DNA of 64,000 nucleotides from an uncultured Myxococcales bacterium (GTDB taxonomy: Bacteria > Myxococcota_A > UBA9042), in contig CAIMEY010000002.1 of the NCBI GenBank assembly GCA_903840165.1, forward strand, positions 133,109-197,108, read 5' to 3'. The notes beneath the pieces were generated by a model. The model saw nothing but the letters and a program-made list of their open reading frames with translations. It ran no database searches and was not told the DNA's origin. The position numbers and the translations under genes are program-made. Below are positions 1-18,619 of this stretch, piece by piece (the stretch's first letter is position 1; every line of letters begins with the position of its first letter).

Positions 1-1243
1 GGCTCGGTCCGCCGACGCACAGGCCGTTCTTGCAGCCGTCCGCGACCGTGCAGGCGTTGTTGTCGCTGCAGGGCACGTTGTCAGCACCGGCCGGGAACAC
101 GCAGTTGCCGCTGTTGGGGTCGCAGGCATTGCTGGTGCAGGGGTTGTTATCATCGCAAGGGGTTGGCTTTCCAACGCAAATTCCAGCCGCGCAGGCATCA
201 ATGGTGCAGGCATTGCCATCGCTGCAGGGCCCACCCTCGAAGACGACTTGGCTGCAGGTGCCATTCTGGCAAGTATCTATGGTGCAAGGGTTATTGTCGT
301 TGCATTGGGCGTTTTGCTTGCACGGTGCCACGCAGTTGGCGATCGGCGCAAAGACGCACAAGCCCGTCTTGGGATCGCATTGGTCTTGCGTGCAGGCGTT
401 GCCGTCGTCGCAGGGCACGGCCGTGCCTGTGCAAGCCCCTGTTTTGCACGCATCTCCGGCCGTGCAGGCCAGGCCATCGCTGCAGGTGCTGCCGTCGGCG
501 ACTGCAGCATGGGCGCATTGACCAGTGGTGGCGTCACAACTGTCGATTGTACAAGGATTTTGGTCGTCGCAGACAGCCGGTGCGCCACCTTCACAGGCAC
601 CGCTGTTGCAGACATCGCCCAGCGTGCACAAGTTGTTGTCGCTGCAGGGATGTGCGGCGTTGACCGACACGCATTTGCCAGTCACCGCGTCGCATTTGTC
701 GTCGGTGCATGGGTTGTTGTCGTCGCAGGCCAGTTGGCTGGCGCCGCCGCAAACTCCATTGGCGCCGCAGACGTCGCCGGTCGTGCAGACGCTGCCATCA
801 TCGCAGGGGGCTCCTGCTGTGGCTACGTTGCTGCAAACCATGGCGGGGAAACTGCAATTGTCGGCTGTGCACGGATTCTTGTCGTCGCAATCGGCAGCCG
901 TTTGGCAAGCCGTCGGTGCCACGACATCCGGGCCCACGTCCACGCTGGGGAGGTCGGCTCCAGGGACATCGCCGGGGCTGGTGTCGGCATCAACTGCTGC
1001 AATATCAAGGGGTGGTGTCCCCGTGTCGCCACCGTCAGTCAGCGCAACATCGCCCCCGGTCTGACCGTCGACGCCGTCGCCGAGGACGCCATCAAGGTTG
1101 CCGTCGGCATCCGAGGACACGCCGGTGGTCGCCGGACCGGTGACAGGCGCGTCATTGGTGCAGCCAACTCCGCTCAGAATCAAGAGAAATCCAAGACAAC
1201 TATGGAGGGTCCAGCTTGTAGTCGTCTGCGTGGTGCGGGTCAT
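1..1243 (-). CDS. Cys-rich repeat (myxo-type disulfide repeat) lipoprotein, N-terminal part (gene runs off the left window edge)
   Basis: Minus-strand ATG at 1243 (plus-strand 'cat' 1241-1243). Hand translation gives MTRTTQTTTSWTLHSCLGFLLILSGVGC (signal peptide/lipobox-like), then a Asp/Gly-rich linker, then repeated C-x-D-x-N-x-C-T-x-D-x-C units (CDDKNPCTADNC, CDDNNPCTDDKCD, CDDQNPCTIDSCD...). The plus-strand ORFs 30..521 and 525..1064 are antisense artefacts of this gene. Not listed in the ORF track because it is open at the window edge. Confidence 0.7.
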   Translation of the reverse strand, partial: MTRTTQTTTSWTLHSCLGFLLILSGVGCTNDAPVTGPATTGVSSDADGNLDGVLGDGVDGQTGGDVALTDGGDTGTPPLDIAAVDADTSPGDVPGADLPSVDVGPDVVAPTACQTAADCDDKNPCTADNCSFPAMVCSNVATAGAPCDDGSVCTTGDVCGANGVCGGASQLACDDNNPCTDDKCDAVTGKCVSVNAAHPCSDNNLCTLGDVCNSGACEGGAPAVCDDQNPCTIDSCDATTGQCAHAAVADGSTCSDGLACTAGDACKTGACTGTAVPCDDGNACTQDQCDPKTGLCVFAPIANCVAPCKQNAQCNDNNPCTIDTCQNGTCSQVVFEGGPCSDGNACTIDACAAGICVGKPTPCDDNNPCTSNACDPNSGNCVFPAGADNVPCSDNNACTVADGCKNGLCVGGPS

Positions 1244-1542
1244 GGAGACTCCTTTGTGGCCCTGTTTTCCTTCGTGTAGGCCGAACACCCTGAGATTACA
1301 GGCGTCTTTTCCTGGTTGGCCCAGATTGACCGTTCGATGGCAGCGGCGAAGTATGGTGCAACCTGCTCGTCACCGCCAGACCAACCGTGCTAGTAGCCTA
1401 GACACTCCCGGCATGTGTTGCCACACGGCGCAAGCAAAGAATTGTAAAAAGAGGTCTGAGTTCGGAGCCCGATAGGCAACCGCGTTGCTCTTTGCTACCG
1501 TGTGCGCGCGGCGCCCCGCCTGGGCGAATTGCAGGAAGATTG

Positions 1543-2682
1543 ATGCGCTTTGCTGAACGATTCGCTAGTCCCGATGAATACTTAACTTTTGACGACGTCC
1601 TGCTGCAGCCCGCGCTGAGCGATGTGTTGCCGCACACAACTGACCTGACGGCCCAGGTGACGCGCCGGCAGCGGCTCGGCATCCCTGTGGTTGCCGCGGC
1701 GATGGATACGGTGACAGAATCACGACTTGCTATTGCTCTTGGCCAACTTGGCGGCCTAGGCGTAGTGCACAAGAACCTCTCAGAAGCGGCGCAGGCTGAC
1801 CATGTGGCTGCCGTCAAGGCCTTTGAGGTTCCGGAAAAAACCTTGTCCTCTGCGTGCTTGGCTAGGGACGGTCGCTTGGTATGCGCGGCTGCCGTTGGCG
1901 CTGGCGATGCGGCTCTTTCGCGGGCCGCTGCGATGGTGGCGGCGGGCGCTGATATCTTGGTGGTGGATACGGCCCATGGGCACTCGCGCAACGTCCTGAG
2001 GACCCTGGCGGACCTCAAGCAACGCTGGCCTCAACTAGAAGTCATTGCTGGCAATGTTGCCACTGCCGCGGCGGTAACTGCCCTGGTTCAGGCTGGCGCA
2101 GACGCCGTCAAGGTGGGCATTGGTCCTGGGTCCATTTGTACGACGCGGATTGTCGCTGGCGTCGGTGTGCCGCAACTATCGGCTGTCTTGGAGTGTGCTG
2201 AGGCCGCGCAAGTACACGGCATTCCAGTGATCGCTGATGGCGGTATTCGCTTCTCGGGCGACATGGTCAAGGCCCTGGCCGCGGGGGCCGGCACGGTGAT
2301 GCTGGGCTCCTTGCTCGCAGCGACCGAAGAAGCCCCTGGCGAATCCTTGCTGATCGACGGCCGAATTTGGAAACGCTACCGGGGCATGGGGTCTCTGGCA
2401 GCCATGGCCCAGGGGTCCAAAGACCGCTATTTTCAAGATCAAGTTCAAGAACCTGGCAAACTGGTGCCTGAAGGCGTCGAGGGACGTCTTGTCAGCCAAG
2501 GGCCTTTGGCGCAAGTGATTCACCTGTTGCTGGGCGGTCTTCGCTCCGGTATGGGCTATGTTGGCGCGGCCAACCTTGCGCAATTGCGGCGTGCGCGTTT
2601 CGTGCGCATGACCGGTTCGGGACTGCGAGAGAGCCACACCCATGAAATTGTTCTGACTTCGCAGGCACCCAATTACCGCTAG
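1543..2682 (+). CDS. guaB: IMP dehydrogenase family protein lacking the CBS (Bateman) subdomain
   Basis: [29 protein letters not shown]-terminus. [16 protein letters not shown] and [11 protein letters not shown] (catalytic Cys loop) motifs. Flap [20 protein letters not shown] ... [11 protein letters not shown] ... [12 protein letters not shown]. Only ~380 aa, because the ~110-aa CBS pair normally inserted after the first ~90 residues is absent. Start moved to the internal Met of the listed ORF 1492..2682 to match the canonical IMPDH N-terminus. Confidence 0.85.
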
Positions 2683-2790
2683 CAGATTCGGAAGTTGCGC
2701 GTCTAGCCGCGATGCCCCAGGCCCGTGACCGGCTGTGCTTTGCAAACCTTCACACTTCCGCGCCGTGCATGGCTATACTCACCGGACCGG

Positions 2791-2810
2791 CGTGCGCTAG
2801 ACTAAGCGCA
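2791..2810. promoter_or_regulatory. Perfect inverted repeat GTGCGCT-agacta-AGCGCAC just downstream of a TATACT -10-like hexamer (2773-2778); candidate operator for the giant Cys-repeat gene
   Basis: Read directly. 7-bp arms with a 6-nt spacer, lying ~45 bp upstream of the proposed start codon. The position relative to the putative -10 is that expected for a repressor operator. Confidence 0.3.
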
Positions 2811-2853
2811 CATCCGTCCGCTTGAGTTGAGTCTCCGTCTCGCCGAGGTTCTC

Positions 2854-5800
2854 ATGAATCCTATCGAAATGTCCTGTAAAATCAATGCCTATCGCATCTC
2901 CTTTCGCTTCGCCCAGGCGGGATTCTGGACGTCGCTTGCGGCCTTGGCGCTGCTGCTAGCTGGCTGCGGCAGCGACACGCCGGTCGCGGGAATTAGCGTT
3001 ATGGGCGATGCAACGGTCGACGCGGGACAAATTGACGGACTGACGACGGATTCTGACGTCTCGACTCCGGCAGACAGCACGGCTGTTGGCGGTGACGCCG
3101 TTGCTGTCGATGCAGTGGACACTCAAGATCTTGGAATTACGGATCAAATCGACATTGTCGCGCCTGATGCAGACGCAGTTGCCGATGACGCAGCGGACAT
3201 CCAGGTGCCCGATAACGGCGACTTGGACCAGGTTCCCCCTGACGGCTCGGATCAGGACGTCCCTCTGCTTGACGCCCAAGATGCTACGGTTACAGAGGAT
3301 TCCGACACGGGCGTTGAAGATTCTGCCACGGACTCGGGTTCCGCTGAACTGCCCATCGATCAAGACGTGCCGCCGCCGGCTTGCGTCACGGATACCGATT
3401 GCCCTGTCGCTGTAGGACTTTGCACCGGATCGGCCTGCGTTGCTGGCCAGTGCGTCGCCAAGGCTGCGGCCGATGGCACCGCCTGCGTGACTGCCGACGC
3501 GTGCACGGTCGGTGCCGTCTGCATCACAGGGCAATGCCTAGGGAATCTCAAGGTCTGCGACGACGGCAAGGTCTGCACGGACGATAGCTGCGACCCCGTC
3601 TCGGGGGCGTGCACCTTTGTGCCCAAGGCGGGCTGCACGGGCTGTAGTACCAACGCCGAATGCGATGACAAAAACGCTTGTACCGACGATAGTTGCAATG
3701 TCGCCTCCGGGGTTTGCAGCACTTCGGCCAAGGTGGACGGAGCCACTTGCGACGACGGCAACTTGTGCACGACGACCGACGCCTGCCAAAAGGGCGCGTG
3801 CATTGGTCAAGCAGTTGTTTGTAATGATAAAAACGCTTGCACCATCGACAACTGCGATGCCACGACCGGCAAGTGCCTCGCTACGAGCGAGCCCGATGCA
3901 ACCCCCTGCGACGACGGCAACGCTTGTACTACGGCCGATGCCTGCGCGGCTGGGAAATGCCTAGGAACAACAATAGTTTGTAATGACCAGATTTCTTGCA
4001 CCGCGGACAGCTGCGACGCCTTGACCGGCAAGTGTGTGTTTGCGGCGATCGCTGGTTGCGTGCCGGCCTGCCAAAGCAATGCCGACTGCAATGACCAAAA
4101 TGCTTGCACAACAGATAGTTGCACCGCCGGCAAGTGTGTTAGTGTCAATGCGGACGGTGCCGCCTGCGATGATGCCAACGCCTGCACCACCGGCGACGTC
4201 TGCACGGGTGGCAGTTGCGCCGGTGCCGCGATGGTTTGCGATGACGGAAATCCTTGTACAACAGATAGTTGCAAGAATGGTGCCTGTGGCTTTACCCAAC
4301 AGATCGGCCCCTGCGACGATGGCGACGCTTGCACCAACAATGACGTGTGCAAGGGGATCAAGTGCGTCGGCACGGCTCTGACCTGCAACGACAATAATCC
4401 TTGCACAACCGATGCTTGCGTGGCCGGTCAATGCAGCAGTTCGCCGATCAATGGCCCCTGCGACGACGGCGACGCCTGCACGTCTGCGGACTCGTGCCAG
4501 AACGGCAAATGCGTTGGCCTCGCCAAGGTTTGCGACGACGGCAACCCTTGCACCGCAGATGCCTGCCAAAATGGCGGCTGCGTCTTTGTCAACGCGGACG
4601 GAAAAGCCTGTGATGATGCCAATGTCTGTACTGCCGGCGACACCTGCACCGGCGGCCTATGCGTGGGCGGCGCTGCCACGGTCTGTGATGACAAAAACGT
4701 TTGCACGACGGATAGTTGCAACTCCAAGAAGGGTTGTGTCTTCATCAATGCCGATGGCACGCCTTGCGACGACGCCAATCCTTGCACCTCGCCCGATGCT
4801 TGCTCGGCTGCCAAGTGCGGCGGAACGTTGATTTCCTGCAGCGACAATGATCCTTGCACGGCCGATAGTTGCGACCCAGCGACCGGCAAATGCAGCTCCA
4901 AGCCGATTCTGGGCTGTGGCGACAACTGCGCGGCGAACAGCGACTGCAATGACAATAATGCTTGCACAACCGATACTTGTGTCGCGGGCAAGTGCTCGAT
5001 CGTCAACGCCGAGGGCTTGGCCTGCACCGACGGCAACGCGTGCACGCAAAATGACCTGTGCACGGGCGGCAAGTGCGTCGGCGGCACAGCTGTCAGCTGT
5101 GACGATGGAAACCCTTGCACCGTAGATACTTGCAACGCAGCGACCGGCAAATGCAGCAGCGTCAACGCCAGCGACGGCACGGTCTGCACCGACAATAACG
5201 TCTGCACCACCAGCGACCAATGCCTCGGCGGCAAATGCGCCGCCACACCCATTTTGTGCAACGATAACAACGTCTGTACCAGCGATGTCTGCGACCCTGT
5301 CAGCGGCAAGTGCGGCTACACGCCCGTGCAGGACGGCACGGCCTGTTCGGATGGCAACGCCTGCAGCCAAAATGACGCTTGTTCCAAGGGCACTTGCACC
5401 GGCCTAGCGGTCAACTGCGACGACGGCGACCCTTGCACCACGGACGCGTGCAACCCGCAGTCGGGCGCCTGCAGCCACACGGCCATTCCCAACTGCATCG
5501 CGCCCTGCAACAACAACAACCAGTGCAATGACAGTAATCCTTGCACAACCGATAATTGCGCTGCCGGCACCTGCGCCCACGCCGCCAACAATGCCGGTGC
5601 TTGCACGGACAATAACCTTTGCACAACCGATGGTTGCAGCGCGGGAAGCTGCGTGTCCGTCGCCATCGTCTGCGATGATAAGAATCCGTGCACGGTGGAC
5701 AAGTGCGACGTCGCCTCGGGGCAGTGCGTCAGCGCCGCTGGCCCGGACAACAGCGCCTGCGACGACGGAAACCCCTGTACTACGCCCGACTTATGCAAGG

Positions 5801-8619
5801 CGGGCAAGTGCACCGGGGCCGGCGCAGTTCTGTGCAACGATGGCGACCCCTGCACCACCGACGCCTGCGACGCGGCCACCGGCAAGTGCACGGCTTCGCC
5901 CATTCCCGGCTGCGGCGGAAACTGTGCAACGGTCCAAGATTGCAACGATAACAACGCCTGCACCAGCGATGCCTGCACCGCCGGCAAGTGCGTCAACACC
6001 GAGTTGACGGCAACGCCCTGCGACGACGGCAACGCCTGCACCAGCGGCGACGTTTGCACCACCGGCAAGTGCGCCGGACCAACGCCGAAGGTCTGCAACG
6101 ACAATAACACTTGCACAACAGATAGTTGCGACAAGGTCACCGGCAACTGCGTCTACACCAACGTTGCCGACGCAACCGCTTGCAATGACGGCCTTTTGTG
6201 CACAATTGGTGATGCCTGCACCGCGGGCAAGTGCGGTGGAACGGCAACCCCTTGTAATGACAACAATGCTTGCACGCTGGACGTGTGCAACCCCAACACG
6301 GGCATTTGCCAGTTTACGGCGATCCAGAACTGCGGCACGCCTTGCCTGACCGTTCAGCAGTGCAACGACAATAATGCTTGCACAACAGATGCTTGCACCA
6401 ACTTCCAGTGCGTTCACAAGCCCGCAGCCAATGGCGGTGCCTGCAGCGACAACAACCTCTGCACCACTGCCGACGCCTGCAACGCCGGTGTTTGCCAAGG
6501 CATAGCAACCACTTGCAACGACAACAATGTTTGCACCAATGACACCTGCCAAGCCGGCACGGGCAACTGCGTCTATGCCGCCGGAACCAATGGCAATCCG
6601 TGCAATGACAACAATCCCTGCACGTTGACGGACGCTTGCCAGGCGGGCACCTGCGTCGGCTCGGGCCTACTGCCTTGCAACGACAACAATGGTTGCACCC
6701 TGGATAATTGTGATGCCAAAAGCGGACTTTGCGTCTACGCGCCCATCAACGGCTGTGGTGGCAACTGCCTTGCGGCCAGCGACTGCGATGACAAGAATGC
6801 CTGCACGACCGACGCCTGCACGGCAGGCAAGTGCACCAACACCGCGCAAACAGGCACAAATTGTAGCGACGGCAATGCCTGCACCGTGGCTGACACCTGC
6901 CAAGCGGGCAACTGCATTGCTGGAAAGGCGGTCGCGTGCACGGACAACAACGTCTGTACCACGGACGCCTGCGATACCAATACGGGTTTGTGCGTCTACA
7001 CGGCCTTGGCTGCGGGCGCTCCGTGCACTGACGGCGTCGCCTGCACCAACGGCGACAACTGCACCGGCGGCAAATGCGTAGGCACCAATGTAGTTTGCAA
7101 CGACAATGACGCATGCACCACCGACGCGTGCGCAGCGGCGACGGGGCTCTGCGTCTACACGCCGATTGCTGGCTGCGGTGGCAATTGCATCCTGAATTTG
7201 CAGTGCAATGACCAAAACCCCTGCACCGGCGACGCTTGCACGGGCGGCAAATGCACCCACACCTTCCCGGCGGGCGGCAATTGCAATGACGGCAACGCTT
7301 GCACCACTGGCGACACTTGTGCCGGTGGCGTGTGCGCAGGTACACCCAAGGCGTGCAATGACAATAACCCTTGCACAACGGATGCTTGCAATGCAAACAA
7401 CGGCAACTGTGTCCACGCCGCTGCCGCTAACGGCACGGGCTGCGACGACGGCAACGCTTGCACAGGCGCTGACGCTTGCGCGGCTGGCACCTGCACGGGC
7501 GTGGCTACCAACCAGTGCAATGACAATAACGTTTGCACGACGGATGCTTGCAACACACTGACCGGTGTGTGCACCAACACCGCCATCGCCGGTTGCGGCA
7601 TCAAGTGCGTCCTCAACGCCGATTGCAATGATGGCAACAGCTGCACGACCGACGTCTGCACCGCCGGATCCTGCGTGATTACCAAGCTCAACGCCACGGC
7701 CTGCGAGGACGGCAACCTCTGCACCACCCTGGACACCTGCGTCACCGGCGTATGCACCTCGGGCAAGGCCGTGAATTGCAATGACAACAACGTTTGCACC
7801 ACGGAGGCTTGCGACGCCAAGACCGGCCTGTGCGCCGGCCAGAACGTCGCCAACGCAACGCCGTGCAATGACGGCACCAACTGCACCACCGGCGACGTCT
7901 GCACGACCGGCAAATGCGCTGGCAAAGCAGTGGTTTGCAACGACGGCAACCCGTGCACCCTGGACAGCTGCGGCGGCAACAACGGCAATTGCCAGTTCCA
8001 GGCCATCGCCAACTGCAACGCCAACTGCGCCAGCGATGCGCAGTGCGCCGACAACAACATCTGCACCACCAACACCTGCACTGCCGGCAAGTGCGCAGTG
8101 ACCTATGCCGACGGAACTCCTTGCACAGACAACAACTTGTGCACGGTTGGCGATATTTGCGCCATCGGTCGCTGCGTCGGCACCGCCACCAACTGTGACG
8201 ACGGCGTGGTCTGCACCACCGACACTTGCGTCGCGGCCAGTGGCGTTTGCAGCCACACAACCCAGCAAAATTGCGGACCTGCGTGCACACAGAATGCAAC
8301 GTGCAATGACAACAACGTCTGCACCGTCGACGCCTGCAACACCTACACCGGCAACTGCGTCAACCAGGCGATTCCCAACTGCAATCCGGTGCCCCAGTGC
8401 ACGCTCAACACCGACTGCAATGACAACAACGTCTGCACCCTGGACACCTGCAACGCCAGCAACGGACAGTGCGTGTTCACCAACATCCCGGGCTGTAATC
8501 CCAATGCCCAGTGCAAGTTGGACGCGGACTGTAACGACAACAACGTCTGCACGGTCGACTACTGCGACACCTTCAACAGCACCTGCCAGCACATCGTCTT
8601 GCAGGGCTGCGTGCCGTAG
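2854..8619 (+). CDS. Giant Cys-rich repeat lipoprotein (~45 tandem myxo-type C-x-D-x-N-x-C-T-x-D-x-C repeats)
   Basis: ORF 2827..8619 (1930 aa). GAGG sits 5 nt upstream of the ATG at 2854. N-terminus MNPIEMSCKINAYRISFRFAQAGFWTSLAALALLLAGCGS has a basic n-region, a hydrophobic core and an LLAGC lipobox. A D/T/V-rich acidic linker follows, then ~40-aa Cys repeats along the whole length (e.g. CDDGNPCTTDACD, CNDNNVCTTDAC). Antisense ORFs (e.g. 6667..8592) are artefacts. Confidence 0.9.
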   Translation: MNPIEMSCKINAYRISFRFAQAGFWTSLAALALLLAGCGSDTPVAGISVMGDATVDAGQIDGLTTDSDVSTPADSTAVGGDAVAVDAVDTQDLGITDQIDIVAPDADAVADDAADIQVPDNGDLDQVPPDGSDQDVPLLDAQDATVTEDSDTGVEDSATDSGSAELPIDQDVPPPACVTDTDCPVAVGLCTGSACVAGQCVAKAAADGTACVTADACTVGAVCITGQCLGNLKVCDDGKVCTDDSCDPVSGACTFVPKAGCTGCSTNAECDDKNACTDDSCNVASGVCSTSAKVDGATCDDGNLCTTTDACQKGACIGQAVVCNDKNACTIDNCDATTGKCLATSEPDATPCDDGNACTTADACAAGKCLGTTIVCNDQISCTADSCDALTGKCVFAAIAGCVPACQSNADCNDQNACTTDSCTAGKCVSVNADGAACDDANACTTGDVCTGGSCAGAAMVCDDGNPCTTDSCKNGACGFTQQIGPCDDGDACTNNDVCKGIKCVGTALTCNDNNPCTTDACVAGQCSSSPINGPCDDGDACTSADSCQNGKCVGLAKVCDDGNPCTADACQNGGCVFVNADGKACDDANVCTAGDTCTGGLCVGGAATVCDDKNVCTTDSCNSKKGCVFINADGTPCDDANPCTSPDACSAAKCGGTLISCSDNDPCTADSCDPATGKCSSKPILGCGDNCAANSDCNDNNACTTDTCVAGKCSIVNAEGLACTDGNACTQNDLCTGGKCVGGTAVSCDDGNPCTVDTCNAATGKCSSVNASDGTVCTDNNVCTTSDQCLGGKCAATPILCNDNNVCTSDVCDPVSGKCGYTPVQDGTACSDGNACSQNDACSKGTCTGLAVNCDDGDPCTTDACNPQSGACSHTAIPNCIAPCNNNNQCNDSNPCTTDNCAAGTCAHAANNAGACTDNNLCTTDGCSAGSCVSVAIVCDDKNPCTVDKCDVASGQCVSAAGPDNSACDDGNPCTTPDLCKAGKCTGAGAVLCNDGDPCTTDACDAATGKCTASPIPGCGGNCATVQDCNDNNACTSDACTAGKCVNTELTATPCDDGNACTSGDVCTTGKCAGPTPKVCNDNNTCTTDSCDKVTGNCVYTNVADATACNDGLLCTIGDACTAGKCGGTATPCNDNNACTLDVCNPNTGICQFTAIQNCGTPCLTVQQCNDNNACTTDACTNFQCVHKPAANGGACSDNNLCTTADACNAGVCQGIATTCNDNNVCTNDTCQAGTGNCVYAAGTNGNPCNDNNPCTLTDACQAGTCVGSGLLPCNDNNGCTLDNCDAKSGLCVYAPINGCGGNCLAASDCDDKNACTTDACTAGKCTNTAQTGTNCSDGNACTVADTCQAGNCIAGKAVACTDNNVCTTDACDTNTGLCVYTALAAGAPCTDGVACTNGDNCTGGKCVGTNVVCNDNDACTTDACAAATGLCVYTPIAGCGGNCILNLQCNDQNPCTGDACTGGKCTHTFPAGGNCNDGNACTTGDTCAGGVCAGTPKACNDNNPCTTDACNANNGNCVHAAAANGTGCDDGNACTGADACAAGTCTGVATNQCNDNNVCTTDACNTLTGVCTNTAIAGCGIKCVLNADCNDGNSCTTDVCTAGSCVITKLNATACEDGNLCTTLDTCVTGVCTSGKAVNCNDNNVCTTEACDAKTGLCAGQNVANATPCNDGTNCTTGDVCTTGKCAGKAVVCNDGNPCTLDSCGGNNGNCQFQAIANCNANCASDAQCADNNICTTNTCTAGKCAVTYADGTPCTDNNLCTVGDICAIGRCVGTATNCDDGVVCTTDTCVAASGVCSHTTQQNCGPACTQNATCNDNNVCTVDACNTYTGNCVNQAIPNCNPVPQCTLNTDCNDNNVCTLDTCNASNGQCVFTNIPGCNPNAQCKLDADCNDNNVCTVDYCDTFNSTCQHIVLQGCVP

Positions 8620-8711: not shown

Positions 8712-10073
8712 ATGGCCCCGACAGTGCGGATGCGCGCGATTGTGTTGACATTTTCAGTGCTTGGCGCCTGCCATTCGGCCACCCCGGCGGCTCCATCCGC
8801 GTCTGCCGATGCCACGTCCTCAGATGGTACCACCACGGCGCAAGACATTGTTTCCTTAGGTGATTCACCAACAGCTGATACGGCAAAGGCTGATGCAGCA
8901 AGTGGCGACGTGACCACGACCAGTGGCGACGCGCAGGCCTTTGTGCCGACCGTTCATCCGGACCTGCCCCAAGTGCTCAACATGGGCGGAAAAGTTCTTA
9001 CTAATCCGCGTGTTGTGCCAGTGCTCTACAGCGATGACCCCTATGGCGCGGACGTGCAGAAACTCCTGCAGCAGATTGCAGCAAGTACCTATTGGCCAAC
9101 GATTGCCAGTGAGTACGGCGTCGGTCCTTTGCAAGTAGGTTCGCCGATTCTGCAATCCGGCAAGGCGCCGGCCAAGTTGGCAGAAGGCGACACGTTGGCG
9201 TGGCTGGACAAGGGCTTGGCAGATCCTAGCACGCCTTGGGGCAAGGTGGATGCGAACACCATCTATATGCTCGTGATTCCGCCGCAGACGGACTTCATTT
9301 CCGGTACAGGGAGTGACGCTGTGTCCTGTTGCGCGGACCGCGGTGGCTACCATGACGAAGTGCAGCTCGCCGGTACCTTGGTACCCTATGCCGTGGTTTG
9401 TGCCTGTGCTTACCCGGAGTTGGGACTCAATGCCTTGGACGACCTGACCTCGACCATTGCCCATGAACTCATCGAGGCCGCCACAGACCCCTTTAGCGTC
9501 AGCGCGCCGGCCTTCAGTCAGCAGAGCAACGCTGATGCCGCCTGGACCGATATTTCCGACGGCGAGGTAGGGGATCTCTGCGAATTTAATCAGGATAGCA
9601 ACATCCACGTTTCGGGCATTGATTACCTCGTCACCCGCAGTTGGTCCAACCTTGCGGCGGCGGCGGGTCATGAGCCCTGCCTGCCATCGCCCGACCCGGG
9701 GCCCTATTTCGCCGCGGCGCCTTTGGTCAAGGATACTGTGAACATTCTGGATTTCCTCGGCAATCCGGTGCAGGCCAAGGGTGTCAAGATTGGGCTGGGG
9801 CAAAGCCGCACGGTGGATGTGCAACTCTTTAGTGACGGGCCGGTTTCTGGGCCCTGGCAGGTCAAGGCCTATGATTTTGAACAGGAAATTCAAGGACAAG
9901 CCAAGCCCAAGCTGGCCTTCACCTGGGATAAGAGCACCGGCAACAACGGCGATGTGCTGCACCTAACCATCCAAGTGCTGGCAACGGATAGCAATTGGGG
10001 CGGAGAGCTGTTCCTCATCGAGTCCAAGCTCGGCAGTCGCACCAGTGAATGGATGGGCGTCGTTGGCCAGTAG
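8712..10073 (+). CDS. Hypothetical secreted lipoprotein
   Basis: ORF 8667..10073. Internal start MAPTVRMRAIVLTFSVLGACHS (signal peptide with LGAC lipobox). An A/S/T/D-rich linker is followed by a ~400-aa globular region with no motif I can assign (HELIEA is present but is not HExxH). Confidence 0.55.
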   Translation: MAPTVRMRAIVLTFSVLGACHSATPAAPSASADATSSDGTTTAQDIVSLGDSPTADTAKADAASGDVTTTSGDAQAFVPTVHPDLPQVLNMGGKVLTNPRVVPVLYSDDPYGADVQKLLQQIAASTYWPTIASEYGVGPLQVGSPILQSGKAPAKLAEGDTLAWLDKGLADPSTPWGKVDANTIYMLVIPPQTDFISGTGSDAVSCCADRGGYHDEVQLAGTLVPYAVVCACAYPELGLNALDDLTSTIAHELIEAATDPFSVSAPAFSQQSNADAAWTDISDGEVGDLCEFNQDSNIHVSGIDYLVTRSWSNLAAAAGHEPCLPSPDPGPYFAAAPLVKDTVNILDFLGNPVQAKGVKIGLGQSRTVDVQLFSDGPVSGPWQVKAYDFEQEIQGQAKPKLAFTWDKSTGNNGDVLHLTIQVLATDSNWGGELFLIESKLGSRTSEWMGVVGQ

Positions 10074-10194: not shown

Positions 10195-10386
10195 CAAGTA
10201 CCTCAAACCCGAAGTTCCTTGCGGGTTCGAGGCACAGTGTTGGCTTCTAGTTTCAGCGGGGCCCGCGGCCCCCCTCGCCCGCCCGCGAGGGCTCACCCCT
10301 GCGTTCGGCCGGGTCCCCGGCTGCAAAGTCCACAACGCCGAGTCCGTTGCGGTAACCCGCAAAGGACTTAGGGTTACGTGTACTAG
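10195..10386 (-). repeat. Copy A of a MITE/REP-like repeat element (CTAGTAC-type terminal inverted repeats, internal hairpins), inverted relative to copy B at 37559-37805
   Basis: The reverse complement of 10195-10386 aligns along its length with 37559-37805. Shared blocks: ctagtacacgtaaccc..., ...ccgcaggggtgagccc..gggcgggcg..., ...tgaaactagaagc.aacactgt.cctc.aacccg..aggaacttcgggtt.gagg. Terminal hairpins include cctcaaacccg/cgggttcgagg. The right end GTGTACTAG contains the TAG stop of the SPOR gene. Confidence 0.55.
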
Positions 10387-12191
10387 TTCGCCGTTTGAAT
10401 CAACACGGTTTCGCCGCCCACAGCCGTTTCAAAGCCCTTCTGCGCCGCCTTGGCAGCGGCCTGATCGGCAAAGGGCCCGAGGCGCACGCGGTAAAAGGTG
10501 CCCTTCTCGGGAACTTCGCCAGCAAATACAGCGGATTTCATGCCCTTGGCAGTCAGCATTTCGGCAAAGGAATCGGCGTCTGCCTGGGTCCGAAAGGACT
10601 TCACCTGCACCATCCACTTGCCGCCGGCATTCTTGTTGCCTGAGGCCGCCCCCTTGGCCTCGCCTTTTCTCTGCGGCTGAACTGCCTTGGCTGCGGCTTG
10701 GCGCTCTGCTTCTGCCTTTTCCTGCGCCGCCTTGTCCCTGTCTGCCCGGTCCTGGTCGGCCTTGGACTTGGCCGCCTTCTCCGCTTGAGCGCGCGCCTGG
10801 GCTTGTTTGGCCGCCACCTGCTCCTGTGCTTGCGCTTGCGCCTTGGCCGCCTTTTCCTCAGAGGCCTTCTGCTCGGCCGCCTTCAGGTTAGACTGCCTCT
10901 CAGATTCCTTCTTTCCTTTCAAAGCTTTGGCTGCTGCCACCTTGTCACGCTCGGCCTGGGCCTTGGCCGTCTTCTCGGCCGCAGCCTTTTCGGTCGCGGC
11001 CTTCTCTGCAGCTCGCTTGTCCGCTTCTTTCTTTTCTTTCGCAGCCTTTGCCGCAGCCACCTTGTCGCGCACAGCCTTGGCCTTGGCAGCCTTTTGCGCC
11101 AGCGCCTCTTGCTTAGCAGCCTTCTCCGCGGCAATTCGCTCGGCTTCTTCCTTTTCTTTCGTGGCCTTGGCTGCTGCCACCCTTTCCTTGGCCGCCTTTG
11201 CCTTGGCCGCCTTGTCAGCCAATGCCTTCTCCTTGGCGGCCTTCTGCGCTGCTAGGCGTACGGCGTCCGCTTGGGCCTCGGCCGCTCTTTCGGCTTCTGC
11301 CCTTTCTTTCGCGGCCTTGGCTGCTGCCGCCTTCTCGGCCGCGGCCTTTTCCTTGGCGGCCTTTTCTGTTGCAGCTTTGACGGCTTGCTGCCGTTCTCGG
11401 GCTTCCTTCTCCGCTTTAGCCCGTTGTTCTTCGGCCTTGCGTTCGGCTTCGGCCCGGGCGGCCGCGGCTTCCCGTTCAGCCTTGGCACGCAGTTCCGCTG
11501 CCTCACGTTCAGCTTTTACACGTAATTCTAAAGCCTTACGGTCCGCTTCGGCCTTGGCTTCTGCCGCACGTTTGGCCGCTGCAGCGTTCTCGAGCGCAGC
11601 CGCCTCCTGGGCTTTTGCAAGTTCAATCGCCGCCTTGCGCTTCGCCTCGGCCTCTGCCTTTGCCGCAGCTTCTTCCCGGGCTTTGCGTTCGGCAGCTGCT
11701 TTTTCCGCAGCGAGCCGTTCTGCCTGGGCCTTCCTTGCGGCGAGTTCCTTCTCTTCTGCAGCCTTTTCAGCAGCTTGAGCCGCGGCCGCACGACGGTCCG
11801 TCTCAGCCTTTTCAGCGGCGGCACGTTGGGCGGCGAGGGCTTGTTCGGGCACATCGGCGTGGGCACTTGCCGGCAGCATTTTAGCTACATGATCAGCAGG
11901 TTGCGGGAGTGGCTCTGGAGGCGGATTGAGCGGGGCCGGAATGATCGGGGCCTCCGCCTTTGCTCTAGGTGCCGCGGCAGGGGGAAGGGCAACCTCAGGC
12001 GTCGCCTCAGCTTTTGGCGGTGTCTGGCTGCCTTGCGCCACGGGTGGCGGCTCTTGACGGCCTAGGTGGTAGCCCACAGCGAACGTCACCGCCAGCGCCA
12101 CAGCACCGACGATGCCAAAGCGCAAAATGTCCCGCACTTCCAGGTGCAAAATCAAGCGTTCGCGCACGCGGTCAAAGTCGCGCAGGGCCAT
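10383..12191 (-). CDS. SPOR-domain protein (FtsN/DamX/TolA-like): N-terminal TM anchor, long Ala/Lys/Glu-rich repetitive helical region, C-terminal SPOR peptidoglycan-binding domain
   Basis: 602-aa ORF. MALRDFDRVRERLILHLEVRDILRFGIVGAVALAVTFAVGYHLG (TM segment). ~400 aa of degenerate AEKAAKEKA repeats. C-terminal WMVQVKSFRTQADADSFAEMLTAKGMKSAVFAGEVPEKGTFYRVRLGPFADQAAAKAAQ is a SPOR-domain signature. Confidence 0.85.
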   Translation of the reverse strand: MALRDFDRVRERLILHLEVRDILRFGIVGAVALAVTFAVGYHLGRQEPPPVAQGSQTPPKAEATPEVALPPAAAPRAKAEAPIIPAPLNPPPEPLPQPADHVAKMLPASAHADVPEQALAAQRAAAEKAETDRRAAAAQAAEKAAEEKELAARKAQAERLAAEKAAAERKAREEAAAKAEAEAKRKAAIELAKAQEAAALENAAAAKRAAEAKAEADRKALELRVKAEREAAELRAKAEREAAAARAEAERKAEEQRAKAEKEARERQQAVKAATEKAAKEKAAAEKAAAAKAAKERAEAERAAEAQADAVRLAAQKAAKEKALADKAAKAKAAKERVAAAKATKEKEEAERIAAEKAAKQEALAQKAAKAKAVRDKVAAAKAAKEKKEADKRAAEKAATEKAAAEKTAKAQAERDKVAAAKALKGKKESERQSNLKAAEQKASEEKAAKAQAQAQEQVAAKQAQARAQAEKAAKSKADQDRADRDKAAQEKAEAERQAAAKAVQPQRKGEAKGAASGNKNAGGKWMVQVKSFRTQADADSFAEMLTAKGMKSAVFAGEVPEKGTFYRVRLGPFADQAAAKAAQKGFETAVGGETVLIQTAN

Positions 12192-12284
12192 CGAATTCCT
12201 CGTGGCTCAGGGGGGCATCCTCGCCACTACTCGAATGTACGCCAATATCGCCAAAGGCCAAAGAATGTTGTCTTTTGCCGCGGT

Positions 12285-14279
12285 CTACGCGGTTGGCTCG
12301 GCGTCTTCTTGCAGCGACTGCATGCGGTCCGGCGCGGTGACGCCAAGTAGCTGTAAACCATTGTGGATCACATGCTTAAGCGCGAGCACCAGGCTCAGAC
12401 GCGCCTGGGTCAGCAGCAAATCATCACTGATTACACGGGCATCGGTCTTGCCGCGCGTGTAGTACGCGTGAAAGGCGCGGCAGGTGTCCAGCAGCCAGAA
12501 CGCCAGCTGATGGGGTTCACGCGCTTTGGCGGCGCGCGCAACAATCTCAGGGAATTCCGCCAAGATCATGCAGAGATTGCGCTCGTCATCCAGAGCCAAG
12601 CTGCGCAGTTCGGCGTGGGCCTGCCAGGGCTGCCCGGCTTCCTCCGCCTTACTCAGCACCGAGGCCAACCGCGCATGGCCGTATTGGACGTAGTACACCG
12701 GATTGTCCATTGAAGTTCGGCGGGCAATTTCCAAATCAAAATCAAGCTGTGCGTCCGCCTTGCGCATCAGGAAGAGAAAGCGCACAGCATTGCGGCCGCT
12801 GCTCGGCTCGGCCGTGGTCACTTCTTCGATCACGTCGCGCAGGGTCACAAACTCCCCGGAACGCTTGCCCATGGGCACTGGCTTGCCGTCCCGCAGCAGT
12901 GCAACCATTTGAACCAGCAGGACTTCTAGGCGATCGCCAGTCCAGCGTGCCGCCCGTGGATCGCCTTCTTGGCGGCGAAGGTCGCCCAAAGCCTGCAGCA
13001 CGCCCTGCAACCTGGGCACGTAGCCATGGTGATCGGCGCCCAAGATATTGATAAGATGATCAAATCCTCGAGCCAGCTTGTCGTCGTGGTAGGCAATGTC
13101 CGCGGCGAAATAGGTCGGCCGACCATCGGAGCGCAGAATGACCCGGTCCTTGCTGTCAAGGAAGCGGGCCGGCATGTCTTCGCGGGTGCCACGGAAGAAA
13201 ACGGCGCGCCCATGCAGGGTTTCGCCTTCTTCGTCAGCGCCGACGCTCTCTTGCTCATAGGCCCATTTGGCGGCCTGCAGGCGCTTGGCACAATCAGCGA
13301 CGGCATTTGCGCCTTGATTTTCAAGGCCATGCAGGGACCGCTCACTGAACCAACGGTCAAAGCCGATGCCGAGCAGGGCCAAGTCCGCCTTAATGCGCAA
13401 GAGCATTTGCTGCCAGGCGGCAATTGAAACACGGCGGTTGTCCGCACGACCCTCGGCATTTTCCGGTTCAGCTACGGCCCAGGCTGCGTCATCGTCCCAG
13501 CGCGCCTGATGGGCCGCCGCTGCGTACTCGCTCGTCACTGCAAAAGTCTCTGCAATCTGCGCAACGTAGCCGCCACGGTAGCCATCTTCTGGGAAACCTT
13601 TGGGAAATCCGGCAGGAAAGGCCACTGGATCGCCCTGGGCCCAGGTTGCCAGTGCCGACTGGCGAAGCGCTGATGCACGTAGCCAATGCCAAACACTTTC
13701 ACCTAGTTTGCCGATCTGATTGCCAACATTGTTGACATAATACTCCGTCGCCACCGCATAGCCCGAGGCCCGCAGCACCCGCGCCAGGGCATCACCCAAG
13801 ACGGCACCGCGCCCGTGGCCGACGTGCAATGGGCCGGTCGGATTGGCACTGACGAACTCCAGCAGCACACGTTCACCGGCTCCCGAACGGTTATTACCAT
13901 ACGTTTCAGGGGTGTGGAGCACATCGGTCACGGCCGACTGCCATGCGTTCGCAGCGAGCCGTAGGTTGACAAAGCCCGGGCCGGCCAGTTCCGCAGCGGC
14001 CAAAAGGCCATGCGTATCGGCCTGTTTTAAAAGCGCAATCAAGCGTTCTGCCACCGCGCGAGGATTGCTCTTGGCCACCTTAGCGAGTGAAAATGCCAAG
14101 TTGGTCGCAAGGTCGCCATGGCTTGCCTGCCGCGGACGCTCCAACGGCACCTGGCTAGGGGCGATCGCATCGGGGAAAAATCCTTCATGTACGCCAATTT
14201 CAATGGCATCAGCCACCAACTGGCGCACGCGTTGGTACAGGCCCGCAGGGGCAAGGGGGGCAGGGTGCAGGTCGCTCAT
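12285..14279 (-). CDS. argS: Arginine--tRNA ligase
   Basis: 664 aa. HIGH motif region FVSANPTGPLHVGHGRGAVLGDALARVL. N-terminal anticodon-binding region with HGDLATNLAFSLAK. Characteristic C-terminal DALR-like domain. Confidence 0.95.
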   Translation of the reverse strand: MSDLHPAPLAPAGLYQRVRQLVADAIEIGVHEGFFPDAIAPSQVPLERPRQASHGDLATNLAFSLAKVAKSNPRAVAERLIALLKQADTHGLLAAAELAGPGFVNLRLAANAWQSAVTDVLHTPETYGNNRSGAGERVLLEFVSANPTGPLHVGHGRGAVLGDALARVLRASGYAVATEYYVNNVGNQIGKLGESVWHWLRASALRQSALATWAQGDPVAFPAGFPKGFPEDGYRGGYVAQIAETFAVTSEYAAAAHQARWDDDAAWAVAEPENAEGRADNRRVSIAAWQQMLLRIKADLALLGIGFDRWFSERSLHGLENQGANAVADCAKRLQAAKWAYEQESVGADEEGETLHGRAVFFRGTREDMPARFLDSKDRVILRSDGRPTYFAADIAYHDDKLARGFDHLINILGADHHGYVPRLQGVLQALGDLRRQEGDPRAARWTGDRLEVLLVQMVALLRDGKPVPMGKRSGEFVTLRDVIEEVTTAEPSSGRNAVRFLFLMRKADAQLDFDLEIARRTSMDNPVYYVQYGHARLASVLSKAEEAGQPWQAHAELRSLALDDERNLCMILAEFPEIVARAAKAREPHQLAFWLLDTCRAFHAYYTRGKTDARVISDDLLLTQARLSLVLALKHVIHNGLQLLGVTAPDRMQSLQEDAEPTA

Positions 14280-17597: not shown

Positions 17598-18484
17598 GTC
17601 ACCTGCCGTCGTCGCCAAATCGCAATGAAAATAAGGAGTAAGCTGAAAATCGCACCAACCGTCGTCCCCCGAGTTGCGGCGCTGCATCCGCCCGGGGCAG
17701 GCGTGGTGCCGCCGCTGCTGAGGTCGCTACCGCTGCTGCTGGCGTCGGTGGCTGGGCCGATGCTTGGGTCACACGTGGTGGTGTAGGCGTGGCAGATGCC
17801 GTCGCGATCGTCCTGGGCCAAGCTGCATTTCTCGCCTGGTTGCGCAGTGTTGAAGGCGTACATGGTCGCCTGCGCATCGGGGCTGTGGCCTAGTCCCAAG
17901 GCATGGCCCATCTCGTGCGTTAGCGTGTCGCACAAATTCACGCGTCCGGCTGAGCAGTTGCCGACGCAGAAGTCGTGGTCGACATCGTCAATCGCAATGT
18001 CCGCGTCGACCAGTTCGCCCGTGCTGAGGTTGGCTGTCACCACCGTTTGCGACAAGACCGAGACGCCAAAGGGCCAATTGGCTTTGATTGGAATGATGAA
18101 ATTGCCGTTCGGGCTATAGCCGGTGCACTTGCCCTGCGCATCCTTGCCGGTGCAGTCGGGCCCCAGGGTGTCGGTATGTGCAAACCCCTTGTTCTCTAGG
18201 GTAAATCCAATCGGATGGCTGGGGCAGGGCGTGCCCGGGACATTGGCTTTGGCACCTTGGCAGGTGTCGCACGCAACCGTTTGCCAAGAGACCATCGCGG
18301 CGTCGACCGTGGCTTGATAGTCGCCATCGGAAACTGTGTCTAGGCTGACATTTTGCAAGTGAAAATCAATGGTCGAGCCCAGCCAGCGCTCGCCGCAGCC
18401 CGTCCCCACTTGGGTCTGCACCCAAGCAAGCGCGGTCGACGGCAGCCAGAGCCACCCCAGGGCGATCGCGATTGGCCAACGCAT
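17594..18484 (-). CDS. Secreted metzincin zinc metalloprotease (matrixin/M10-like) with MYXO-CTERM sorting tail
   Basis: ORF 17594..18817. Start proposed at internal MRWPIAIALGWLWLPSTALA (signal peptide; minus ATG at 18484). HEMGHALGLGHS (HExxHxxGxxH) followed by an ATMYAF Met-turn. C-terminus GGCSAATRGTTVGAIFSLLLIFIAIWRRRQVT is a GC + hydrophobic helix + Arg cluster (MYXO-CTERM). The 4-bp overlap with the S41 peptidase start indicates an operon. Confidence 0.75.
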   Translation of the reverse strand: MRWPIAIALGWLWLPSTALAWVQTQVGTGCGERWLGSTIDFHLQNVSLDTVSDGDYQATVDAAMVSWQTVACDTCQGAKANVPGTPCPSHPIGFTLENKGFAHTDTLGPDCTGKDAQGKCTGYSPNGNFIIPIKANWPFGVSVLSQTVVTANLSTGELVDADIAIDDVDHDFCVGNCSAGRVNLCDTLTHEMGHALGLGHSPDAQATMYAFNTAQPGEKCSLAQDDRDGICHAYTTTCDPSIGPATDASSSGSDLSSGGTTPAPGGCSAATRGTTVGAIFSLLLIFIAIWRRRQVT

Positions 18485-18619
18485 GCAGTCCTCCGTCGCC
18501 AACCCTACCGGATCTTGGGTCCATTTGGCAAAGCCGCGCTCCTGGGAATGTCTTGCGGCCCTGCGGGGCTGACCCGTATGCTGGCGACGGGTCAAGCGCA
18601 CGGCGCCTGGGGTGAATAA

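Follow-up and report, generated by a model that had tools for sequence, protein, structure and literature searches.

RESULTS

Genes at the locus

The window (the whole stretch of DNA analyzed, 64,000 nucleotides from an uncultured Myxococcales bacterium) opens with two very large genes for cysteine-rich proteins, here called genes A and B, that lie on either side of a guaB-like IMPDH gene. Gene A (positions 2854 to 8619, plus strand) is a complete open reading frame of 1921 codons without interruption, and GAGG sits 5 nt upstream of its ATG. Its product, a Dicty_CTDC-repeat lipoprotein, contains 278 cysteines in 1921 aa (14.5%); the same protein has been called in public ENA assemblies and is identical in sequence in those that carry it. 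The bacterial population is present in freshwater samples (ENA ERZ1426621, ERZ27313597, and ERZ18667900). By sequence pattern, a signal peptide with a canonical lipobox (...AALALLLAG-C38) occupies positions 2854 to 2967. The lipobox cysteine lies rather late for a lipoprotein signal at position 38, and a translation start at Met6 would make it C33. There follows an acidic linker (residues 39 to 176; 2968 to 3381), defined by its composition, with 35 acidic residues (32 Asp and 3 Glu) and no Lys or Arg in 138 aa. The remainder of the protein (residues 177 to 1921; 3382 to 8616), here called the rod, holds an even number of cysteines (276) in 63 to 68 modules whose median spacing is 26 aa. Its modules are of two alternating types, and it carries 188 Asp or Glu residues versus 57 Lys or Arg residues. 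Repeat alignment delimits six regular super-repeats of ~140 aa within the rod (residues 855 to 1694; 5416 to 7935), each made up of five four-Cys modules plus one two-Cys C-x3-C insert and thus having 22 invariant cysteines. A C-terminal cap (8194 to 8616) of ~38-aa units ending in ...GC-x-x was recognized by alignment with B and with P0012, an ortholog of B, and is conserved among all three proteins. The only notable tandem DNA repeat (114 bp, 2.4 copies, 74% matches; 8302 to 8571) lies within this cap. The protein ends in ...LQGCVP, without a hydrophobic tail.

Gene B runs on the minus strand from an ATG at position 1243, with AAGGAG 5 nt upstream, and continues past the start of the window. 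Its 5' part (1 to 1243) comprises 414 of 1374 codons, with the remainder beyond the window start. The full-length gene, encoding 1374 aa, is found in a near-identical contig (L084:4266-8390, minus strand) that differs from the window at 1 base in 1300. The signal peptide and lipobox of B (MTRTTQTTTSWTLHSCLGFLLILSGVG-C28; 1160 to 1243, minus strand) were also assigned by sequence pattern; the lipobox (...FLLILSGVG-C28) is relaxed rather than canonical, having Gly at position -3. The acidic linker (residues 29 to 112; 908 to 1159, minus strand) again stands out by composition, with 16 Asp and no Lys or Arg in 84 aa. Eleven four-Cys modules of the repeat array fall within the window (residues 113 to 414; 1 to 907, minus strand), and cysteine makes up 11.8% of the part of B encoded there. 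Full-length B has 44 to 45 modules, an even number of cysteines in the mature protein (194), and a C terminus (...LVGCK) that likewise lacks a hydrophobic tail. As a pattern match, both A and B fit PROSITE PS51257: a positively charged N-terminal region, a hydrophobic stretch, and a lipobox, [LVI..][ASTVI..][GAS]-C within about 15 to 35 residues.

A divergent intergenic spacer of 299 bp (1244 to 1542) separates the start of gene B from that of the IMPDH gene. A consensus scan found no promoter-like sites, and a terminator scan found terminator-like sites in numbers no higher than those expected from shuffling. The IMPDH gene (1543 to 2682, plus strand; PF00478, TIGR01302) encodes a 379-aa guaB-like protein without a CBS/Bateman module. 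Its PF00478 match (483 bits) covers positions 2 to 345 of 345, the active-site Cys loop is present, and a Pfam search returned no CBS match. The score against TIGR01302 (440.7 bits) falls under the cut-off (481.5), in keeping with the absence of the CBS (Bateman) region of ~100 positions; residues 101 to 350 of the query align to profile positions 201 to 449. IMPDH models outscore GMP reductase models by far for this gene, and the 379-aa protein has likewise been called in public assemblies. The gene content given in a preliminary description of this DNA therefore holds: lipoprotein-type signals and acidic linkers in both giant genes and a CBS-less IMPDH gene bracketed by them, with B divergent from it.

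Repeat family

The only Pfam family found in A and B at an E value of ≤0.01 was PF00526 (Dicty_CTDC, the "Dictyostelium (slime mold) repeat"), which scored 467.1 bits over 30 stretches of A and 112.9 bits over 6 stretches of the window part of B (gathering score, 27 bits). The motif C-x-D-x-N-x-C-T-x-D-x-C, which the preliminary description had reported as common to both genes, has 62 occurrences in the window, every one of them within A or B; a six-frame search of the other ~55 kb gave no occurrence. The 160 loci collected by IMPDH-based scans of genome and metagenome contigs served as a negative background, and no motif cluster (two or more matches) was found in 162 unrelated loci (about 2.3 Mb). 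The repeating unit, previously put at ~40 aa, is instead a module of four cysteines with a median spacing of about 26 aa. Behind the linker, each protein is a single unbroken array of these modules and has no further domain that could be recognized. All 22 cysteines of the super-repeat are invariant over 58 super-repeats drawn from several proteins, and set positions of every module (D3, T8, D10, and so on) carry nearly invariant Asp, Asn, and Thr.

Other repeat families and sorting signals were considered and rejected. TIGR02232, the family to which the repeats had been ascribed, matched neither A nor the window part of B at an E value of ≤10, nor full-length B at ≤0.01, while a positive control, P0095, scored 64.4 bits with the same NCBIfam library (cut-off, 20.8 bits). 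The NCBIfam library as a whole gave zero matches in A or B; among its models, NF033662 matched neither protein. MYXO-CTERM sorting was set aside on the same grounds and for want of a hydrophobic C-terminal tail. EGF/laminin repeats gave no Pfam match at an E value of ≤0.01, and in a profile search of the PDB, fibrillin appeared only at an E value of 0.39. Thus, the repeats do belong to a family other than the one first proposed, as the preliminary description had allowed for in naming what would speak against it, but that family is not EGF/laminin and, although named, is not well characterized. Taken together with the alignments described below, these results make it very probable that A and B are Dicty_CTDC-repeat lipoprotein paralogs with a conserved module count.

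A profile search retrieved 28,054 representative proteins, some of which reach about 6,500 aa; A and B are ordinary members of this very large bacterial family. In relatives, NHL, subtilase, PKD, LTD, or P-domain modules adjoin the same array, and a lipobox-like signal plus an acidic linker was found in 64 of the 120 best homologs, as counted with a crude regular expression. In one relative, a gene for a MopE-like Cu-binding protein adjoins a Dicty_CTDC gene. In the literature library searched, bacterial Dicty_CTDC proteins surfaced solely as a domain label mentioned in passing, in a preprint on a bacterial teneurin.

Predicted structure

An AlphaFold2 model of one super-repeat (residues 994 to 1133 of A) was obtained with a pLDDT of 95.6 and a pTM of 0.66. 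It consists of nearly all short hairpin strands, with one four-residue helix, and the Dicty_CTDC modules are accordingly predicted, with high confidence, to be short beta-hairpins. The best Foldseek match of the model was to the heavy chain of the Entamoeba Gal/GalNAc lectin, within its Cys-rich region, although this match was weak (E value, 6e-3; probability, 0.91; TM-score, 0.27; 21% identity). Foldseek returned no significant structural match to the model in the PDB, and sequence searches of the PDB likewise gave nothing significant, the Entamoeba lectin included. In that lectin, a Cys-rich region forms an elongated arm made rigid by interdomain disulfides (PMC12948311). The arm is built from small hairpin modules of ~20 residues with intermodule disulfides (PMC12948311), and the super-repeat model likewise shows hairpin modules; unlike A and B, the lectin is a type I membrane protein of a eukaryote and has a globular core together with a lectin light chain.

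Paralogs, orthologs, and genomic setting

Residues 113 to 1373 of B are collinear with residues 692 to 1919 of A (51% identity, 3% gaps), which bears out the earlier view that the two genes are paralogs. A third paralog, of 2930 aa and with the same N-terminal architecture, lies about 4 kb past the start of the window. B and its ortholog P0012 are both 1374 aa long and are collinear from end to end at 58% identity (30 gap columns), with 194 of about 195 cysteines aligned. At the DNA level, repeats within and between genes A and B are no more than 68 to 72% identical over 200 to 480 bp, and the longest exact repeats, within and between the two genes, are 25 to 27 nt. The repeat DNA of A and B is old and diverged. 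Since the repeat DNA is diverged, the exact matches are short, and B and P0012 share their length and cysteine framework, module number appears to be conserved. Judged from these alignments, the cysteine framework and module count are conserved both between paralogs and between species, and there is no sign of a variable locus driven by recombination.

The adjacency of A and B to guaB looks incidental. P0012 lies between genes for MgtC and for a chromate transporter, and no IMPDH gene occurs near it; where relatives retain the ArgRS-SPOR gene pair, neither the giant gene nor the IMPDH gene is found beside that pair. Scans of genome and metagenome contigs based on the IMPDH gene gave best relatives at 56 to 66% identity, none of them close. 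The earlier picture of a locus built around guaB is thus not sustained, and we regard the IMPDH gene as a neighbor, not a demonstrated part of a system. An origin of the region in a mobile element or island was considered and is unlikely, as the window, which carries ArgRS, DnaB, LigA, and Asd, belongs to the core chromosome. The window also contains another acidic Cys-repeat lipoprotein gene (19930 to 23913, minus strand; NF033662, 408.7 bits), whose product opens with one or two Dicty_CTDC-like modules.

DISCUSSION

We lean toward an explanation in which A and B are paralogous, lipid-anchored, disulfide-stiffened rods of the cell surface or matrix, with fixed length. Export would proceed through Sec, and lipidation would fall on Cys38 of A and Cys28 of B, as the N-terminal sequence patterns of both proteins suggest. 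The residues at position +2, Gly in A and Thr in B rather than Asp or Lys, point to sorting to the outer membrane, where both proteins would then be placed. The remaining cysteines (276 in A and 194 in B) would all be oxidized to disulfides in the periplasm; an even count in the mature protein is as expected if every cysteine is disulfide paired. The module array would then be a rod, long, stiff, and resistant to proteases, borne on a flexible acidic tether either on the cell surface or within the extracellular matrix, and proteins that consist of the rod only, as A and B do, would make up a surface coat or matrix. The length of the array would be fixed by selection and not varied through recombination. 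The most likely role of the array is that of a structural rod or spacer, given the analogy with EcmA and EcmB and given that in many bacterial relatives the same array is joined to enzymatic or binding domains; that A and B themselves serve as a surface rod or matrix component is, on the same analogy, about evenly balanced.

[quoted passage not shown] A and B resemble these proteins (EcmA/EcmB and PsiA/PdiA) in having a four-Cys module of ~24 aa with a C-x-D-x-N-x-C-T-x-D-x-C core and, as their signals predict, in being secreted proteins composed of nearly all tandem modules behind a signal peptide. They differ in being bacterial, in carrying a lipobox and an acidic tether where the dictyostelid proteins have a plain signal peptide, in the strict alternation of their module types, and in their ~140-aa super-repeats with the extra C-x3-C insert. 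The bacterial family, with its 28,054 representatives, vastly outnumbers the 6 to 15 proteins per dictyostelid genome. Among bacterial systems, TIGR02232 (myxo_disulf_rpt, Pfam DUF4215) also comprises Cys-rich, acidic, tandem extracellular repeats of Myxococcota-type bacteria, and the Cys-rich repeats of Myxococcus TraA are believed to make up a stalk on which a receptor domain is displayed (PMC13184517); A and B belong to another repeat family and lack both a MYXO-CTERM tag and a PA14 domain. NF033662 (acid_disulf_rpt, acidic double-disulfide repeat) is, like the repeat of A and B, an acidic four-Cys tandem repeat found in a lipoprotein, but the two families are distinct, and globular domains break up the NF033662 arrays. 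Arrays of calcium-binding EGF or laminin-type EGF domains, such as those of fibrillin, are likewise long rods of disulfide-knotted modules with conserved Asp and Asn, with 6 to 8 cysteines in 40 to 60 aa versus 4 in ~26 aa.

Other readings of the locus differ over its variability and over where the rods reside. The preliminary description had taken A and B to be TIGR02232 repeat proteins encoded by duplicated genes around guaB, where recombination among repeats and among paralogs would alter the number or sequence of the repeats and so provide surface variation. That two paralogs lie inside 9 kb with a third about 4 kb on, that A and B are highly repetitive in architecture, and that the A cap contains the 114-bp tandem repeat (8302 to 8571) would all suit such a locus. 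Nevertheless, the TIGR02232 model passes over A and the window part of B even at an E value of 10 while it recognizes P0095, the repeat DNA is diverged and its exact shared stretches are short, the module register is kept between A and B with 3% gaps and between B and an ortholog of equal length that is only 58% identical, the A protein is the same across the assemblies that carry it, and the guaB adjacency is missing at P0012 and in relatives. We consider this reading largely refuted and very improbable. If the rods are lipid anchored, they could instead face the periplasm, from the inner leaflet of the outer membrane or from the inner membrane, and serve as a periplasmic scaffold or spacer. 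This is the default orientation of proteobacterial lipoproteins, no surface-export signal is known in the lineage, and a search of NCBIfam (MYXO-CTERM included) revealed no C-terminal sorting tag in A or B. However, going by the module count, 45 to 65 modules would, if extended, span many times the width of the periplasm; relatives join the array to NHL, PKD, subtilase, and LTD domains, which are typically extracellular; and the eukaryotic members are extracellular matrix proteins. A periplasmic location therefore seems unlikely to us.

The remaining alternatives accept an exposed rod or bear on its chemistry. As an adhesin or a stalk for contact-dependent recognition, the rod would project its terminal cap to prey, kin, or polysaccharide, much as the stalk of TraA does with PA14. 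Conservation of the cap in A, B, and P0012 would fit this role, as would the joining of Cys-repeat stalks to PA14 or other binding domains in dictyostelid and bacterial proteins and the grouping of the source lineage with Myxococcota-like metagenome-assembled genomes, as judged from the submitter names of ArgRS homologs; yet A and B have no recognizable binding domain, the cap does not differ in module type from the remainder of the rod, and no conserved partner gene adjoins them, so that we give an adhesin only a small share of the probability. A further proposal is that the Cys, Asp, and Asn residues are ligands for Ca2+, Cu, Zn, or Fe, with the proteins acting in metal buffering or storage or being stiffened by Ca2+. 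It can point to the Asp, Asn, and Thr residues nearly invariant at set positions of each module, to the very acidic A rod (188 acidic versus 57 basic residues), to another acidic Cys-repeat lipoprotein (NF033662) in the window, and to the MopE-like Cu-binding protein beside a Dicty_CTDC gene in a relative. Against sequestration stand the even cysteine count of the exported, mature proteins, as for full disulfide pairing, and the confidence of the AlphaFold2 model without a ligand, and we judge it quite unlikely; stiffening assisted by Ca2+ is compatible with the surface-rod explanation and is no rival to it. The conserved Asp, Asn, and Thr of each module could nonetheless mean metal binding, an observation that counts against a purely structural role.

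The locus itself is ordinary, holding two among many Dicty_CTDC-repeat lipoprotein genes in a lineage full of them. Its value lies in the family: a repeat of slime mold matrix proteins proves to be very abundant in uncultured bacteria, and its structure model is very confident although no relative has been solved. The family is a clean target for structure determination. It also raises the questions of how a bacterial cell folds proteins containing over 100 disulfides and of whether the matrix modules of social amoebae and of social or predatory bacteria have a shared origin. As a speculation that we hold to be improbable as a whole, Dicty_CTDC arrays may form an undescribed, disulfide-cross-linked rod layer or matrix of uncultured Myxococcota-like bacteria with a new fold, and EcmA/EcmB and their dictyostelid relatives would share the module with such bacteria through transfer between kingdoms, the bacterial pool being the larger and possibly the ancestral one. 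The Dicty_CTDC and TIGR02232 repeats can also occur together: P0095 has both types in one protein.

Two giant lipoprotein genes flank an IMPDH gene

Gene A (2854-8619, plus strand) is an uninterrupted open reading frame for 1921 aa, with GAGG 5 nt before its ATG. Its paralogue B lies on the minus strand and runs from an ATG at 1243 past the window start, with 414 codons inside the window; AAGGAG stands 5 nt upstream of that ATG. The exact A protein was found in ENA metagenome assemblies. One contig, L084, which overlaps the window and extends past its start, differs from it by 1 base in 1300 and hence represents the same population; full-length B, read from it, is 1374 aa. L084 also carries a third giant paralogue (L084:1-1255, minus strand, ~4 kb beyond the window start) of 2930 aa, with a lipobox (LWLMA-C) at the N terminus, an acidic linker, and Dicty_CTDC modules; between it and B stand genes for an ATP-grasp protein and a PP2C/cNMP-binding phosphatase. 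The guaB-like IMPDH gene (1543-2682, plus strand, 379 aa) lies between A and B, as had been described: B and IMPDH are divergent and 299 bp apart, and 171 bp separate the IMPDH stop from the start of A. The whole window belongs to the core chromosome and includes genes for ArgRS, DnaB, LigA, Asd, and a DEAD helicase.

A and B are arrays of 4-Cys Dicty_CTDC modules

Cysteine makes up 14.5% of A (278 residues) and 11.8% of the window part of B. Loosened to C-x-[DN]-x-[NDG]-x-C-[TS]-x(1,2)-[DN]-x-C, the motif originally noticed matched 62 times in the window, always inside A and B, and not once in the remaining ~55 kb when every frame was scanned; among 162 unrelated loci (~2.3 Mb), no cluster of two or more matches was found. 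The Cys-repeat observation thus holds, at a level far above that expected by chance. Both proteins open with a lipoprotein-type signal and an acidic linker, in agreement with the first reading. The lipobox is canonical in A (...AALALLLAG-C38) and relaxed at -3 in B (...FLLILSGVG-C28), and the linkers that follow the lipobox Cys (138 aa with 35 Asp/Glu in A, 84 aa with 16 Asp in B) contain no Lys or Arg. Pfam and NCBIfam revealed no further recognizable domain and no C-terminal sorting tag in either protein. After the lipobox Cys, the Cys count is even in both (276 in A, 194 in B). The basic unit is a 4-Cys module, repeated at a median interval of 26 aa instead of the ~40 aa first proposed, and there are 63-68 modules in A and 44-45 in B. 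Two module types alternate, C-x-D-x-N-x-C-T-x-D-x-C...G-x-C and C-x-D-G-N-x-C-T-x-x-D-x-C-x-x-G-x-C. Four Gly-rich inserts (e.g., GGGGGGPGGG) occur in B and are absent from A.

The repeats had been assigned to TIGR02232 (myxo_disulf_rpt), but NCBIfam gave no family at an E value of ≤0.01 for A or for B, whether B was searched as its window part or at full length. Even at E≤10, for which A and the window part of B were searched, B matched nothing and A matched only LptM, nonsignificantly (E=7.4). The TIGR02232 model was present and working in the same library, since the control protein P0095 matched it at 64.4 bits, and the assignment to TIGR02232 is rejected. [quoted passage not shown] EGF and laminin repeats are also rejected; their Pfam models matched neither protein, and a super-repeat profile searched against the PDB returned fibrillin only, at a nonsignificant E of 0.39.

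Residues 855-1694 of A form six regular ~140-aa super-repeats, each consisting of five modules and a 2-Cys C-x3-C insert. When A and its long top-listed homologues were scanned, 41 of these proteins contained the super-repeat. The alignment of 58 copies shows 22 invariant Cys and, at fixed positions in the modules, a nearly invariant Asp, Thr, and Asp. AlphaFold2, given A residues 994-1133 and the 58-sequence alignment, returned a model with a mean pLDDT of 95.6 (≥90 for 133 of 140 residues) and a pTM of 0.66, in which the predicted fold is nearly all short beta-hairpins. Foldseek found no PDB match to this model at E≤0.001. The nearest structure, a weak match (E=6e-3; probability, 0.91; TM-score, 0.27; 21% identity), is the Cys-rich region of the Entamoeba Gal/GalNAc lectin heavy chain, whose small modules make up an arc plus an extended arm "rigidified by interdomain disulphide bonds" (PMC12948311). 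A 2021 survey placed Dicty_CTDC among repeat families without known structure (PMC8078820).

Module number appears to be conserved

Residues 113-1373 of B align collinearly with residues 692-1919 of A (51% identity, 3% gaps). This alignment bears out the proposed paralogy, indicating that A and B are whole-gene paralogues beyond mere possession of a common repeat, and A therefore amounts to a B-like rod with ~515 extra N-terminal residues of modules. P0012, an orthologue encoded by another organism, is 58% identical to B over the full length; each protein has 1374 aa, and their alignment contains just 30 gap columns and keeps 194 of about 195 Cys in register.

The preliminary description saw in the duplicated repeats a locus whose repeat number or sequence may vary by recombination. 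The repeat DNA is at most 68-72% identical over 200-480 bp (within A, within B, or between the two), the longest exact shared stretches are 25-27 nt, and Tandem Repeats Finder reported just a diverged 114-bp repeat (2.4 copies) toward the 3' end of A, plus a trivial one of 18 bp. The A protein is identical across the assemblies that carry it, which may not be fully independent. Together with the two collinear alignments, these results argue for long-term conservation of module number, and the recombination model is largely refuted.

The IMPDH neighbor is most likely incidental

The IMPDH matched the whole PF00478 model, and Pfam found no CBS domain; in TIGR01302, query residues 101-350 align with profile positions 201-449, at a score under the equivalog cutoff. 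As first suggested, it is by these alignments a genuine CBS-less form, without the CBS/Bateman module. Similarly short IMPDH genes are scattered across unrelated lineages (Saccharibacteria, Anaerolineaceae, Bacteriovoracaceae, Puniceicoccales, and Limosilactobacillus rudii), which suggests that the module was lost repeatedly and independently or that the short form spread.

A locus built around guaB has no counterpart in the relatives compared. The P0012 gene is flanked by genes for MgtC and a chromate transporter; its locus lacks IMPDH and carries two more Dicty_CTDC genes within 14 kb. The ArgRS-SPOR pair (window 10383-14279) persists in relatives with 66-68% identity in ArgRS, and neither a giant gene nor IMPDH lies beside it there. 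The loose motif was found at 0 of 160 other IMPDH loci. Because of these three results, the bracketing of guaB is confined to this lineage and is most likely incidental. Promoter and terminator scans gave no call deciding cotranscription of IMPDH and A.

A large bacterial family in a Myxococcota-like host

A search with A returned >4,420 proteins at E≤1e-10, nearly all with PF00526, most of 1,500-3,300 aa, and almost all without a name or "hypothetical"; those named come from MAGs labeled Myxococcales, Deltaproteobacteria, Myxococcota, Planctomycetes, and Phycisphaerales. Many join the array to NHL, LTD, subtilase, PKD, P-domain, or DUF4215. When 1.84 billion cluster representatives were searched with the super-repeat profile, the matches numbered 28,054 at E≤1e-3 (16,207 of them at E≤1e-10 and 6,238 at E≤1e-30) and reached a length of 6,486 aa. 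By a crude regular expression, an acidic linker comes after a lipobox-like signal in 64 of the 120 best matches. The domain family is already known and is labeled automatically in databases, and A and B are new members; in the literature searched, bacterial members appear only as a domain label in a figure legend. Interest is modest for the A/B locus and somewhat greater for the bacterial family overall.

The window ArgRS is 59-70% identical to proteins of "Myxococcales bacterium" and "Deltaproteobacteria bacterium" MAGs, and the next relatives, after a gap, reach ≤48% (Desulfuromonas and similar taxa); this places the host in an uncultured Myxococcota-like lineage. ENA record names of the type BUCK21-1_SAMEA... 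would point to a metagenome data set from a stratified lake. Each genome of the host lineage appears to carry a greatly expanded set of Dicty_CTDC genes. On the contigs of P0012 and of P0132, a protein from a relative, several Dicty_CTDC genes are scattered among housekeeping genes. One such gene in relatives adjoins guaA (GMP synthase) and a gene for a MopE-like Cu-binding protein; other copies are found in the vicinity of genes for a WD40 Ser/Thr kinase and an OmpA/TSP_3 protein.

A proposed surface rod

The features that sequence and model show in A and B are a lipobox signal, an acidic tether, an unbroken 4-Cys hairpin array, an even Cys count, and a conserved framework and module number. 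We propose that both proteins would be exported by Sec and lipidated and that all Cys pairs (138 in A, 97 in B) would be oxidized in the periplasm; metal binding by these proteins has a lower probability. Lipoprotein sorting at +2 follows an Asp rule in E. coli and a Lys rule in Myxococcus. Since the +2 residues are Gly and Thr, A and B would be sorted to the outer membrane. A long, stiff, protease-resistant rod would then be displayed at the surface or in a matrix; a periplasmic location is less probable.

The main analogy is with dictyostelid EcmA and EcmB, signal-peptide proteins made of Dicty_CTDC repeats, which belong to the matrix and are believed to strengthen the stalk (PMC4406040; PMC4931340, Table 4); the Cys-rich stalk of Myxococcus TraA is a second (PMC13184517). 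In relatives, the same array is joined to catalytic or binding domains, so its own role is most likely that of a rod or spacer. Proteins that are rod only, like A and B, would then make up a coat or matrix, a role to which we give more weight than to that of an adhesin stalk.

Other genes in the window

Directly downstream of A, 8712-10073 (plus strand) encodes 453 aa with the N-terminal design of A and B, a lipobox-type signal (...FSVLGA-C) followed by an acidic Ser/Thr/Asp-rich linker; its globular domain has no family (NCBIfam, none; otherwise a weak DUF6643 match only). A functional link to A and B is possible. A further Cys-rich lipoprotein (19930-23913, minus strand; 1327 aa; signal ...VLAAA-C) begins with one or two Dicty_CTDC-like modules and then has 16 copies of NF033662, the "acidic double-disulfide repeat" (408.7 bits), in an array broken up by four ~130-aa globular domains; the protein has no Pfam match at E≤0.001. 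The SPOR-domain protein (10383-12191, minus strand; 602 aa) contains a ~450-aa low-complexity Ala/Lys/Glu-rich (AEKAAKEK-type) segment, which accounts for the AT skew of -0.6 at 10.5-12 kb; in relatives with the conserved ArgRS-SPOR pair, it is far shorter (309-328 aa). A 3264-aa open reading frame (40028-49822, minus strand) has C-terminal TPR matches only, leaving ~2,900 residues without a family match. A few kilobases from the repeat genes, a matrixin-like (M10) metallopeptidase gene (17594-18817, minus strand) adjoins one for an S41/PDZ tail-specific protease (15789-17687, minus strand).
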